Source: Ardenticatenales bacterium
GTDB taxonomy: Bacteria; Chloroflexota; Anaerolineae; Promineifilales; Promineifilaceae
Length of the DNA: 64,000 nucleotides
Assembly (NCBI GenBank): GCA_020634515.1
Contig: JACKBL010000001.1
Coordinates: 145,268 to 209,267, forward strand
Direction: 5' to 3'
Shown here piece by piece: positions 62,567 through 64,000 of this stretch (its first letter is position 1; every line of letters starts with the position of its first letter). A program made the position numbers and the translations under genes. The notes beneath the pieces were generated by a model. That model ran no database searches. It had not been told where the DNA came from and saw nothing but the letters and a program-made list of their open reading frames with translations.

Positions 62567-62920
62567 ATGTCTACTTCGCATCAGGAAATGCCGATTTTTA
62601 CGCGCACTTTTGATTTCCTGACCTGGCTGTTGCCGCAAACGAATCACTTCCCGCGCGCCCATCGGCACACGTTTACACAGCGACTGTTGGAGGCCGCATT
62701 TGATCTGCGAGAACGACTCGAAGAAGCAAATTGGCAGCAGGGCAACGCCCGGCTGCAAAAACTGCAGGAAGCAGATGAAGCCTTATCCAAAGTGCGGCTG
62801 TATCTGCGTCTGGCATATCGCTGGAAGTGGCTCACGCCAGGCCAATACGAACATGCGGCAGCGATGATGACGGAAATCGGGCGCTTACTTGGCGGATGGA
62901 AAAAGAAAACTGGCAGGTAA
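62567..62920 (+). CDS. avd: DGR accessory variability determinant (Avd; four-helix-bundle protein)
   Basis: ...FDFLTWLLPQTNHFPRAHRHTFTQRLLEAAFDLRERLEEA...MTEIGRLLGGWKKKTGR parallels Bordetella phage bAvd (…EVGRILGSWIARVNRKG). It lies upstream of the TR and a DGR-type RT. Start uncertain: ATG 62567 or 62588. Confidence 0.75.
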   Translation: MSTSHQEMPIFTRTFDFLTWLLPQTNHFPRAHRHTFTQRLLEAAFDLRERLEEANWQQGNARLQKLQEADEALSKVRLYLRLAYRWKWLTPGQYEHAAAMMTEIGRLLGGWKKKTGR

Positions 62921-62949
62921 CGGCGTCACTTCACCATACATTATTGATC

Positions 62950-63068
62950 AGGAGCTGGAGTCTGGCGAAAACCACATATGGTGGTCGGAGTCGAGACTTT
63001 AGCCGGATCAAACCGCCATATGTGGGCCGGCTGAAGCCTCCACTCCAAAAACGCCAGTGTCCAGTCAG
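62950..63068. repeat. Family C MITE-like element (third copy) inserted between avd and the DGR template repeat
   Basis: ctggcgaaaaccacatatggtggtcggagtcgagactttagccggatcaaaccgccatatgtgggccggctgaagcctccactccaaaaacgccag. Confidence 0.7.
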
Positions 63069-63089
63069 GAAGTGCAACCTCCAGCCGCT

Positions 63090-63260
63090 CACACCGGCTG
63101 ATGTTGGGGGCAAAACCCATAACGGCTGCTCCGCCCGCAACAGGAACGACCCGCACAACAACTTCAACGACAACAACGGGTTTCGGGTGGCAGTTTCCAC
63201 ACTTCTCCTGCAGGTTGTGTCCCAACCGGAATTGCCTGGCGGGTACGCCTTCCGGGCCGA
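63090..63260 (+). other. Candidate DGR template repeat (TR), AAC-rich, CLec-type
   Basis: ggctgctccgcccgcaacaggaacgacccgcacaacaacttcaacgacaacaacgggtttcgggtggca... In frame it reads GCSARNRNDPHNNFNDNNGFRVAV, the signature of CLec-fold DGR variable regions (…RSANRNRNNPDNRNNNIGFRC…). Boundaries are approximate because no VR is available for alignment. Confidence 0.6.
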
Positions 63261-63389
63261 GGTGAGAAATGGCGGGGTTTTGTCCTGGCCGCGCCCAAAG
63301 CGTCAGCCGCGGGCCGGGCAAATAACAACGGGCCGCGTCTCCCCGGTTCGTCCCTGAGACGCGGCCACTTTTCACAAACCGTGTTGGCT

Positions 63390-63535
63390 CTGCAGAATTT
63401 AAGCGGGAGTGGAGGCTTTAGCAGAATTTAAGCGGGAGTAGAGGCTTTAGCAGAATTTAAGCGGGAGTGGAGGCTTTAGCCGGAACGGTTGCAGAATTTA
63501 AGCGGGAGTGGAGGCTTTAGCCGGAACGGTTGCGA
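63390..63535. repeat. Tandem ~30-bp repeats (GCAGAATTTAAGCGGGAGTGGAGGCTTTAG x4, last two with an 11-bp insert)
   Basis: Direct repeats lie between the TR and the RT start. The GGAGGCTTTAGCCGG core matches the Family C MITE core. Confidence 0.75.
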
Positions 63536-63595
63536 CAGAATCTCCTCTCCGCCCCCCTATCAGGAGATGACCCCACGAGTTCCCCCAAAGCCACC

Positions 63596-64000
63596 TTGTT
63601 TCACGCCCTCTGTAGTTGGGATAACTTGCTCCAGGCTTACCAGCAGGCCAGTCGCCGCAAACGGGGGCGGGGCGATGTGGCCGCCTTTGAATATCGCCTG
63701 GAAGACAACCTGCACGACTTGCAGCAAGAGCTGCGCGCTCGCACTTACACTCCGGGCCGCTACAACAGCTTTTTCATCCACGAACCGAAGCGGCGGCTGA
63801 TCAGCGCGGCGCCGTTTCGGGACCGTGTGGTGCATCACGCCTTGTGTAACGTTATCGAACCGATTTTTGAGCGCGCGTTCATCTACGATTCTTACGCCAA
63901 CCGTGTGGGCAAGGGCACGCACCGCGCCCTGGACCGGGCGCAGCAGTTTGCCCGCCGTTTCCCCTACGTGCTGCAATGCGACTTGCGCCAGTTCTTTCCC
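63596..64000 (+). CDS. DGR-type reverse transcriptase, N-terminal ~135 aa (3' truncated by window end)
   Basis: Frame 2, open to the window end: ...[106 protein letters not shown]... is collinear with Bordetella phage Brt (WENLLDAY...KRR...[31 protein letters not shown]...YTYACRPDKGTHAGV). No ATG/GTG in frame after the upstream stop at 63518; TTG 63596 or TTG 63530 are the possible starts. The overlapping track ORF 63489-63800 is in another frame and is rejected. Confidence 0.85.
   Translation, partial: [135 protein letters not shown]

Follow-up and report, generated by a model that had tools for sequence, protein, structure and literature searches.

An Avd-type diversity-generating retroelement (DGR), carried on an Anaerolineae-type (Chloroflexota) chromosome and acting on a protein that joins a NACHT NTPase to a CLec (lectin) domain, accounts for the features found at the 3' end of the 64,000-nt stretch of DNA studied here (the window). 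This reading is held with high confidence, the target being most likely an NLR-like sensor. Within the window the avd gene, the template repeat (TR) and the 5' end of the reverse transcriptase (RT) gene follow one another in this order immediately 3' of mdh (61564-62505, Pfam Ldh_1_N and Ldh_1_C), the gene that the first-pass annotation had placed directly upstream of avd. The DGR accessory gene avd (62567-62920, forward strand) encodes 117 amino acids, and the proposal that this product is a four-helix-bundle protein of the Avd family held up well, with 70.6 bits against Pfam bAvd (cut-off 40), 93.1 bits against the NCBIfam equivalog DivGenRetAVD (cut-off 80), and Bbp7/bAvd (4dwl) and the Avd chain of 8ub7 as its top PDB matches. 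Adjoining both the TR and the RT, this Avd is in the position of a DGR member. The window end falls 134 codons into the RT (63530-64000, forward strand), the frame of which is open up to base 63997; gene callers start it at TTG 63530, and the homologues start where TTG 63596 lies (MF..L.SWDNLL).

Locus continuation and the diversified repeat

Metagenome contigs with 99-100% identity to the window supplied the remainder of the locus. The exact match to the Avd protein lay on a 549-bp contig only, and the match to mdh on a 6.5-kb contig that still ended within the RT; the route to longer contigs led through an RT homologue, P0001. Contigs L006-L013 and L094 share 99-100% identity with the window across 2.5-9 kb, the closest contig examined (L002) shows 99.1-99.9% identity, and the source records assign identical proteins to Anaerolineales or Ardenticatenales MAGs. 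A convergent gene for a NACHT and FGE-sulfatase/CLec protein begins about 80 bp past the RT stop (81 bp in the contigs with 99-100% identity to the window), downstream of the RT, where the first-pass annotation had expected the diversified target. The target and its variable repeat (VR) are known from other assemblies of the same species rather than from the window's own molecule and, if the window is collinear with L006, the RT would be expected to stop near 64672, the convergent gene near 64754, and the VR to lie on the minus strand at about 64775-64852.

It was also confirmed that no VR lies anywhere in the 64 kb, as had been noted from the start. A relaxed BLAST of 62921-63400 against the window left the TR part without a match, an adenine-blind scan of the window returned matches at chance level only (47-60% at non-A positions), and a pattern in which every TR adenine may be any base, with three mismatches allowed, found just the TR itself in the window, with 0 matches expected by chance. 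The same pattern gave 0 matches, the TR itself included, in collections of genomes, metagenomes and viral contigs, from which it follows that the species is absent from those three collections. Rfam reported no family at the gathering threshold in the whole window and none at E<=1 in 62500-64000, and a scan of the locus for promoter and terminator consensus sequences was uninformative. A 176-aa open reading frame that spans the TR (62827-63357) was rejected as a gene, having no Pfam match and representing the TR in the frame of the target.

Matching to the VR in the near-identical contigs placed the TR at 63121-63199 on the forward strand, some 79 nt with 22 adenines. The AAC-rich stretch encoding the CLec-type motif ...CSARNRNDPHNNFNDNNGFRV... 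is present where it had been reported, and the peptide encoded by the TR reads N-G-C-S-A-R-N-R-N-D-P-H-N-N-F-N-D-N-N-G-F-R-V-A-V-S; the extent first given to the template, 63090-63260, was too wide, since what is left of it belongs to the structured DGR RNA alongside the TR. The VR comprises the last ~26 codons of the target gene. Among ten contigs four VR alleles were distinguished, taken from assembled consensus contigs of different samples, with one common allele in five of the ten. Each allele has 9-12 mismatches at TR adenines and none at other positions (Fisher p 6e-7 to 2e-9) and, when the four are pooled, one allele or more has a substitution at 19 of the 22 adenines and at 0 of the 57 non-adenines, with changes to G, T and C about equally frequent (19, 17 and 16). 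Divergence between alleles is 0.115-0.167 per site in the VR and 0.004-0.010 in the rest of the gene, the VR thus diverging 16-30 times faster. A TR and a cognate VR that differ at TR adenines only are what defines a DGR, and it is at the 3' end of the target gene, in contigs 99-100% identical to the window, that the adenine-specific mismatches on which the first-pass annotation had made its reading depend were found. That diversification took place in the recent past is shown by the four alleles, the backgrounds of which diverge by 1% at most.

The target and its likely role

The product of the target gene is 1002 amino acids long and consists of two N-terminal TM helices (a membrane anchor predicted from a hydropathy plot), a coiled coil, then a NACHT (STAND) NTPase and, joined to it by a helical linker, an FGE-sulfatase/CLec domain at the C-terminus. 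Pfam NACHT matches residues 227-399 with 41.1 bits (cut-off 26.7) and Pfam FGE-sulfatase matches residues 730-1000 with 114 bits. The variable codons are 972-989 of the 1002, placing the VR in a C-terminal ligand-binding fold, as is usual for a DGR target; the 12 codons that contain adenine are mostly AAC, none of them can be converted to a stop, and together they allow ~5e11 peptides. The target is most likely an NLR-like sensor, probably located in the cytoplasm.

The first-pass annotation had called the identity of the target in a Chloroflexi-like background unknown, but the class to which it belongs is known there. Doré et al. (2024, PNAS, PMC10907252) described DGRs that act on NACHT-CLec proteins in bacteria of filamentous or multicellular habit, with Chloroflexi among them, and proposed DGR-diversified CLec-STAND proteins as antigen sensors; nothing relevant on NACHT, STAND or Chloroflexi turned up in a search of Roux et al. 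(2021). With a central STAND NTPase and a C-terminal CLec domain that bears the VR, the present target has the architecture set out in PMC10907252, and the locus is a further member of a class already described. It shares with those systems (e.g., Thiohalocapsa PB-PSB1 DGR 3, clade 5D) a cellular DGR, a target in which the NACHT NTPase is central and the DGR-diversified CLec/FGE domain is fused to it at the C-terminus, an N-terminal extension without a characterised domain, a VR diversified across natural samples and, judged by lineage, a host that may be filamentous (PMC10907252 lists filamentous Chloroflexi). It differs from them in the two-TM anchor and coiled coil at its N-terminus, and in having a single target gene where two are common in that clade. 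At least 594 related RT loci were found in GTDB genomes, mostly of Chloroflexota and for the greater part in MAGs of Anaerolineae, Caldilineae and Ardenticatenia, with NACHT-FGE targets at many of them; this gives some indirect support to a possible place of the RT in the cellular DGR lineage (clade 5) that is enriched in multicellular bacteria. The majority of those with enough flanking sequence have NACHT-linker-FGE targets and A-biased TR/VR pairs, and two (L054 and L068) have the same convergent layout as the locus studied here.

The characterised NACHT/Avs anti-phage STAND NTPases are built in a similar tripartite way, with the output region at the N-terminus, the NACHT NTPase in the centre and the sensor at the C-terminus. 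Their sensors are TPR or other repeats, whereas here the sensor is a hypervariable CLec domain; its diversity arises somatically through a retroelement, while theirs is germline-encoded, and the present protein has no nuclease, protease or TIR effector. TvpA of Treponema denticola and other variable proteins of FGE-type CLec DGRs likewise carry a CLec domain of the FGE-sulfatase type and a VR ending ...GFRV near the C-terminus. TvpA is a surface lipoprotein without an NTPase; here the CLec domain forms the C-terminal part of a STAND NTPase that is tethered to the membrane and probably cytoplasmic.

What such a sensor would recognise bears on a different reading, in which the DGR is genuine and its NACHT-CLec protein serves self/non-self (kin) recognition between filaments, or regulatory tuning, in place of anti-invader sensing. 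Several observations are compatible with it: no recognised effector domain was found in the target, PADLOC models gave weak P-loop-centred matches only (the best 22 bits to PprDinG), so that the protein does not count as a member of a known defence family, and the neighbours of the locus are housekeeping genes (mdh, feoAB, a methyltransferase and a GHMP kinase) and form no defence island. For cyanobacterial DGR targets, regulatory roles have also been proposed (PMC7517822). On the other hand, anti-phage sensing is established for NACHT/STAND proteins whose C-terminal sensors vary (PMC10907252). The present findings fit either role. A kin or regulatory role is possible though on the unlikely side, and the sensing of invaders is the role preferred for the NLR-like protein.

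Template RNA, repeat insertions and reverse transcriptase

The TR is embedded in a structured RNA that could be traced through 25 related loci. It is bracketed by a duplex of 12 bp, two of them G-U, between a 5' strand at 63107-63118 and a strand of the Sp region at 63275-63286 (both forward). An equivalent pairing of 11-13 bp is found in every relative, ending 2-10 nt 5' of the TR and with compensatory changes; cognate strands score 11.96 of 13 compared with 10.30 for non-cognate strands, and 0 of 5000 permutations reached the cognate value. By analogy this duplex would correspond to the avd:Sp 'cPRT Stop' duplex of phage BPP-1 (10.1101/2023.10.23.563531). A second long-range helix pairs the strand next to the TR (63200-63207) with Sp 63264-63271 (both forward), near the 3' end of which lies the predicted priming site (about 63271-63272; the predicted stop of cDNA synthesis is at about 63119-63121). 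Its 7 pairs are formed in 99.4% of cells across 25 sequences, with compensatory changes at 6 of the 7, and it may be the analogue of BPP-1's template:primer duplex between TR and Sp; its Sp strand ends 3 nt 5' of the Stop-duplex strand, the spacing in BPP-1 being 2 nt. The presence and covariation of both long-range helices over 25 loci mark a structured RNA, the functions suggested for it being modelled on the BPP-1 structure.

Between these elements, just 3' of the TR, RNAalifold predicts Sp hairpin 1 (63225-63263, forward strand), whose helices 2 and 3 are 95-97% paired with compensatory changes at 11 of 12 pairs; judged by the order of elements in BPP-1, it is a likely counterpart of the Avd-binding stem-loop. 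The distal Sp RNA (63287-63363, forward strand) is made up of hairpin 2 (63287-63319), a conserved A-rich single strand GGCAAATAACAAC (about 63318-63331) and hairpin 3 (63333-63363). This sequence block is conserved among the 25 relatives, its helices 4-6 are 89-96% paired with compensatory changes at 15 of 17 pairs and, again by order, its parts may correspond to the stem-loop plus adenosines, the thumb ring and the RT-binding stem-loop. Taken over all 36 RNA pairs, pairing amounts to 93.7%, while shuffled sequences give 74.8% and slid controls no more than 55%, and compensatory changes occur at 32 of the 36. The order of elements is that of the cryo-EM description of the BPP-1 DGR RNA.

Just outside this covarying core, on either side, lie two repeats. 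The first is a palindromic dispersed repeat of ~114 nt (62953-63066, without assigned strand) between avd and the RNA core, with other copies at 3024-3134 (forward) and 46315-46421 (reverse), which forms a long hairpin on either strand (z -5.7 and -5.4). It is missing from 80 related DGR loci, one weak match excepted, and the avd-to-TR distance is 204 nt here versus ~55-80 nt in relatives, a pattern of occurrence that identifies the repeat as an insertion and no conserved part of the DGR. The second, detected with Tandem Repeats Finder, is an array of 29/41-nt units (63392-63533, forward strand) that separates the conserved Sp RNA from the start of the RT. The arms of the palindrome match its unit core GGAGTGGAGGCTTTAGCCGG, and the TR-to-RT distance is 332 nt here versus ~85-200 nt in relatives; the array is, by these signs, an insertion specific to the lineage and akin to the palindromic repeat. 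It is collapsed or gapped with Ns in several contigs, and differences in its copy number among contigs were for that reason not trusted as real variation.

The right arm of the palindrome (63027-63046) could form a 20-bp helix with its own left arm or with several of the array units, and the minimum-free-energy fold predicted for 62921-63600 uses a palindrome-array clamp that would enclose the whole template RNA. The palindromic element, or its 20-bp complementarity to the array, was nevertheless rejected as the primary explanation of a functional helix bracketing the TR, because it is a dispersed genomic repeat with no copy in relatives and because the bracket that covaries is 63107-63118 with 63275-63286. 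It is improbable that a pairing switch of the palindrome, or the copy number of the array, gates the folding of the template RNA and so tunes the rate at which the receptor is rewritten.

The full-length RT homologue P0001 has 380 amino acids and is 99% identical to the RT part in the window. Its affiliation with the Brt family of Bordetella phage, originally proposed from the N-terminal part, was supported by the top PDB match, bRT of 8ub7 (E 2e-46, 162 bits), far ahead of group II intron RTs (68 bits) and of any retron RT. Conservation extends to the residues aligned with bRT K29, F66, R74, I76, D138, I181/G182/Q187 and D215/D216; opposite D138 and D215/D216 lie the D of LQCD and the FVDD box. 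The loss of DGR motifs from the full-length protein, which would have spoken against the first reading, was not seen: IGNLTSQ and the catalytic aspartates are kept, and 120 of 120 close homologues have IGNLTSQ. An [ILV]GxxxSQ motif, catalytic aspartates and bRT as the closest match are the marks of the DGR clade, in which the enzyme is placed by sequence comparison. Its catalytic box is FVDD in place of the YVDD usual in the clade, as in 16 of the 120 close homologues.

This substitution, together with the lengthening of the non-coding RNA by two repeat insertions and the single VR allele common to 5 of 10 contigs, could be taken to mean that the DGR is decayed or domesticated, a remnant that no longer diversifies and whose VR alleles are old standing variation; the insertions or the Y-to-F change in the YxDD box might be what disabled it. 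Such decay is very improbable. The open reading frames are all intact, the other catalytic and fidelity residues are conserved, FVDD or FIDD recurs in 22 of the 120 close homologues, and the insertions lie outside the covarying RNA core. Moreover, the insertions are present in every contig, yet four VR alleles occur on backgrounds only 0.2-1% divergent, which means that diversification continued after the insertions. There is next to no chance that the RT is of another class, such as the maturase of a group II intron, a retron RT or one associated with defence, beside a coincidental Avd-like gene and AAC-rich stretch: its best NCBIfam match is indeed the group II intron RT/maturase model TIGR04416 with 124 bits, and PADLOC lists many DRT and Cas1-RT models, but the former is far under the cut-off of 300 bits (as is retron St85, 42 versus 235), Rfam finds no intron or retron RNA, bRT is ahead of the other solved relatives by ~94 bits, Avd is above its equivalog cut-off, and the cognate TR/VR pair with purely adenine-specific differences refutes it.

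A complete DGR compared with BPP-1

The recently active Avd-type DGR favoured here can be set beside the prototype, the mtd-avd-TR-brt element of BPP-1. Common to both are an Avd and an RT that share key residues, adenine-specific mutagenesis with AAC codons in the TR, a VR at the C-terminal tip of a CLec-fold domain, and an RNA with one succession of elements: stem-loop behind the TR, template:primer duplex, Stop duplex formed with the sequence upstream of the TR, single-stranded A-rich stretch and distal stem-loop. The differences are considerable. The present element is chromosomal while that of BPP-1 is phage-borne; its target lies 3' of the RT on the opposite strand instead of upstream on the same strand, and is a 1002-aa NACHT NTPase rather than a tail-fibre tip. 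The TR has 79 nt compared with 134 nt in BPP-1, and the catalytic box is FVDD compared with YMDD. Finally, the upstream Stop strand, inside avd in BPP-1, is intergenic here, ~190 nt past the avd stop, because of the repeat insertion.

From the observed parts, the TR/VR relationship, the adenine-specific variation in the population and the covariation of the RNA helices, a course of events can be proposed in which the order of the biochemical steps is borrowed from phage BPP-1. The avd-TR-Sp-RT region would be transcribed, and one Sp segment (63264-63271) would pair with the TR's 3' flank (63200-63207) and so position the cis-primer, while a second would pair just 5' of the TR (63275-63286 with 63107-63118) and set the stop of cDNA synthesis. 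The RT-Avd complex would then copy the 79-nt TR into cDNA, misincorporating opposite adenines, and this cDNA would replace the VR at the 3' end of the convergent gene outside the window. As for the biological role of the sensor, a ligand that changes, e.g., a protein of a phage or other invader, would bind in the hypervariable pocket of the lectin domain, and binding would lead to NACHT oligomerisation and a membrane-proximal output.

These findings do not overturn current understanding. They do settle the target of the cassette, a NACHT NTPase of NLR-like type whose lectin sensor is hypervariable, and present the DGR as complete and recently active. The RNA boundaries 63100-63375 are now defined for reconstituting the element. 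By covariation, the RNA elements seen by cryo-EM in BPP-1 are conserved, in the same order, in a large clade of Chloroflexota DGRs (at least 594 loci), which supports the generality of the reverse-transcription mechanism.

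The cassette and the gene beyond it

All of the features that the first-pass annotation described in 62567-64000 are present. The avd ORF (62567-62920, 117 aa) matches the Pfam bAvd model at 70.6 bits (cut-off 40) and the NCBIfam equivalog DivGenRetAVD at 93.1 bits (cut-off 80), and in the PDB its product is related only to 4dwl, the bAvd of Bordetella phage, and to the Avd chain in the bRT-Avd-RNA complex 8ub7. It follows mdh (61564-62505; Ldh_1_N and Ldh_1_C) and is followed by the AAC-rich stretch encoding CSARNRNDPHNNFNDNNGFRV and by the 5' part of the reverse transcriptase (RT) frame, which runs to the window end from TTG 63530, the gene-caller start, or TTG 63596, the start favoured by homologues (consensus MF..L.SWDNLL). 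A hairpin, GGTATGAGAGGCAAG...CTTGCCCCTCATACC, lies at 62510-62556, immediately past the mdh stop codon, leaving only ~10 nt to the start of avd. The promoter scan turned up no sigma-70-like candidate that could convincingly drive the cassette, so transcription of avd, the template repeat (TR) and the RT may rely on read-through or a non-canonical promoter.

The absence of a cognate variable repeat (VR) from the 64 kb, as first noted, held in three types of search: relaxed BLAST returned nothing beyond the TR itself, an A->N pattern allowing up to 3 mismatches matched the TR only, and the best non-A agreement in an adenine-blind positional scan was 47-60%, the chance level. The A->N pattern also gave zero matches in three DNA contig collections, from which the species is therefore absent. 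An identical-protein look-up with Avd and mdh led to short contigs, one of which (L002) yields 360 RT residues, and an RT homology search recovered P0001, a protein of 380 aa that is 99% identical and annotated as belonging to an Anaerolineales MAG. The metagenome contigs encoding P0001 (L006-L013), together with L094 and L095, are 99-100% identical to the window across 2.5-9 kb of overlap; they are of the same species and can be used as a proxy for the missing sequence.

The target had been predicted to lie downstream of the RT or elsewhere in the genome, and these contigs carry it downstream of the RT as a convergent gene with a TR-matching 3' end. It encodes 1002 aa, and its stop codon is 81 bp past the RT stop in all contigs reaching that far. 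Further on are feoA/feoB, a methyltransferase, a GHMP kinase and LigT, and the neighbourhood is ordinary chromosome, not prophage. The 81-bp interval holds a GC-rich hairpin, CTGGGGGGGCTTTGCCCCCCAG, and then a T-run (8555-8576 of contig L006, or about 64698-64719 of the window if collinear), probably a bidirectional terminator; at ~60 nt from the VR end, it is positioned unlike the target-site cruciform of the Bordetella phage BPP-1.

The target begins with two hydrophobic helices, seen by hydropathy (~residues 23-72), and a charged, coiled-coil-like stretch (~75-130), followed by a NACHT domain (227-399; 41 bits, cut-off 26.7), a helical linker and an FGE-sulfatase/C-type-lectin (CLec) domain (730-1000; 114 bits). 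Sequence comparison with the PDB relates it to formylglycine-generating enzymes and their kin. Assignment to the bNACHT/Avs families characterised by experiment was rejected, as the comparison with PADLOC defence models gave P-loop similarity and no further match.

Adenine-specific diversification of the target

When the window's TR region was aligned with the target gene's 3' end, contiguous homology was confined to 63121-63199, which makes the TR ~79 nt long, with 22 adenines, rather than the 170 nt first proposed. Four VR alleles occur among the ten contigs and cluster members, with the peptides YWLAPLNHFNDNS, SWSGPRDRFYDLY, YWLVPHDDFFDDG and YGNGPRHGFDGDY, that of the TR being NRNDPHNNFNDNN. 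Each allele has 9-12 differences from the TR, all at TR adenines and 0 at non-adenines (Fisher p 6e-7 to 2e-9 across alleles). The TR-matching sequence with adenine-specific mismatches that the first-pass annotation called for thereby exists: with the four alleles pooled, 19 of the 22 TR adenines are substituted and 0 of the 57 other positions, and the replacements are near-equal (G 19, T 17, C 16). Such adenine-only differences are the signature of a diversity-generating retroelement (DGR). Divergence between alleles is 0.115-0.167 per site in the VR versus 0.004-0.010 per site in the remaining 2.9 kb of the gene, which shows that the element has diversified its target within a population of genomes otherwise at least 99% identical.

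The adenine-containing codons of the TR (nine AAC, two GAC, CAC, AGG and one silent GCA) have no route to a stop codon, and ~4.9e11 peptides are reachable. The TR is itself polymorphic in contig L011, where G63169A and A63172G convert GAC AAC to AAC GAC and VR allele 1 is retained; this would slightly alter the reachable peptide repertoire.

Template RNA and repeat insertions

When the TR 3' end and spacer of 24 related loci were aligned with the window, a conserved non-coding RNA emerged. RNAalifold gave local hairpins at 63225-63263, 63287-63319 and 63333-63363, with compensatory changes in 26 of 29 pairs. To these was added a long-range helix pairing the TR 3' flank (63200-63207) with spacer positions 63264-63271, which is 99.4% paired with compensatory changes in 6 of 7 pairs. 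Over all 36 pairs, the structure is 93.7% paired, versus 74.8% for shuffles and at most 55% for slid partners. A second long-range duplex joins 63107-63118 (GGGGCAAAACCC), a 12-nt strand ending 2 nt before the TR, to spacer positions 63275-63286 (GGGTTTTGTCCT). All relatives have an equivalent 11-13-bp duplex of differing sequence, and cognate partners score 11.96/13 versus 10.30/13 for non-cognate ones, a result reached by 0 of 5000 permutations.

In the BPP-1 RNA, cryo-EM places an Avd-binding stem-loop directly 3' of the TR, then a template:primer duplex formed by TR and Sp (Sp being the spacer), 2 nt past it the avd:Sp 'cPRT Stop' duplex, formed with sequence 5' of the TR, and later a single-stranded thumb ring and an RT-binding stem-loop (10.1101/2023.10.23.563531). 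The window's elements are collinear with this list and, by analogy only, would have the roles of their BPP-1 counterparts. The last pair of the primer-like helix, G63271:C63200, adjoins A63199, the final TR position alignable with the VR and C in every VR allele, which fits initiation of mutagenic cDNA synthesis at this point. Directly 5' of the Stop-duplex strand is another hairpin, 63083-63101 (CAGCCG-CTCACAC-CGGCTG). In most related loci this position is also occupied by a hairpin, with an unrelated sequence (mean z -1.8; 12 of 25 below -1.5). The element may mark where the functional DGR RNA begins on its 5' side, or serve as an avd terminator/attenuator.

The distances from avd to TR (204 nt versus about 55-80 nt in relatives) and from TR to RT (332 nt versus about 85-200 nt) are enlarged by two insertions. 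The first is a 114-nt palindromic element (62953-63066, + strand), with further copies at 3024-3134 (+) and 46315-46421 (-); all three sites are intergenic and the copies are 88-93% identical to one another. Each strand folds into a long hairpin (z about -5.5). The element matches no Rfam family; related DGR loci lack it, and it occurs in this species' contigs only. Several short metagenome contigs terminate inside it, as expected of a multi-copy repeat. The second insertion, which separates the conserved spacer RNA from the RT start, is a tandem array (63392-63533) of 29/41-nt units, GCAGAATTTAAGCGGGAGTGGAGGCTTTA[GCCGGAACGGTT]. The core of each unit copies the palindromic repeat in a left-arm-like form and is hence complementary to the right arm at 63027-63046 (20 bp, one G-U), and the MFE fold of 62921-63600 pairs the two, clamping the entire template RNA. 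Neither insertion falls within the covarying core (about 63083-63375), and both are found in all contigs while the VR alleles differ, so evidently they do not block the DGR. Some contigs show the array collapsed or interrupted by N gaps, and its apparent copy-number differences, which coincide with scaffold gaps, are not trustworthy. Other intergenic arrays, at 61032-61424 (six 67-bp units, with a spurious 37-aa ORF from gene callers) and 10755-10952 (three 66-bp units), have in common the inverted repeat CTTCCCGGAAGC...GCTTCCGGGAAG with different loops.

Reverse transcriptase and related systems

That the RT is of the DGR type, and not a group II intron or retron enzyme, was upheld once the longer protein was available. 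Its best solved relative is the Bordetella phage bRT of 8ub7 (162 bits, E 2e-46) versus 68 bits or less for group II intron RTs, and it scores far under the cut-offs of the NCBIfam group II and retron models. The residues aligned to bRT K29, F66, R74, I76, D138, I181/G182/Q187 and D215/D216, highlighted by the cryo-EM study (10.1101/2023.10.23.563531), are conserved in the alignment, and all of the 120 closest homologues keep IGNLTSQ unchanged. The catalytic box, past the window end at ~residue 249 of P0001 (L002 about 6233-6247), is FVDD. The clade's usual box is YVDD (103 of the 120), but FVDD (16) and FIDD (6) are found as well, making FVDD a recurrent natural variant.

A scan of GTDB genomes with the RT alignment gave at least 594 related loci, mostly in Anaerolineae, Caldilineae and Ardenticatenia MAGs, the best being 74% identical. 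NACHT-linker-FGE homologues of the target are present in most of the 80 fetched loci with enough flank, and A-biased TR/VR pairs in 33 of the 39 loci whose gene order is avd-RT; two related loci (L054 and L068) have the same convergent, downstream-target arrangement.

The window locus showed every DGR feature tested for, in support of the original avd-TR-RT interpretation, and in mechanism it corresponds to the BPP-1 prototype. Its own traits are the single convergent target, the two-TM and coiled-coil N-terminus, a short TR, FVDD as the catalytic box, and the repeat insertions. Kaur et al. 2020 (PMC7159879) reported related conflict systems linked to DGRs. The target belongs to the class of NACHT/STAND NTPases with DGR-diversified CLec domains reported from multicellular or filamentous bacteria, including Chloroflexi, for which a role as antigen sensors has been proposed (Doré et al. 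2024, PMC10907252).
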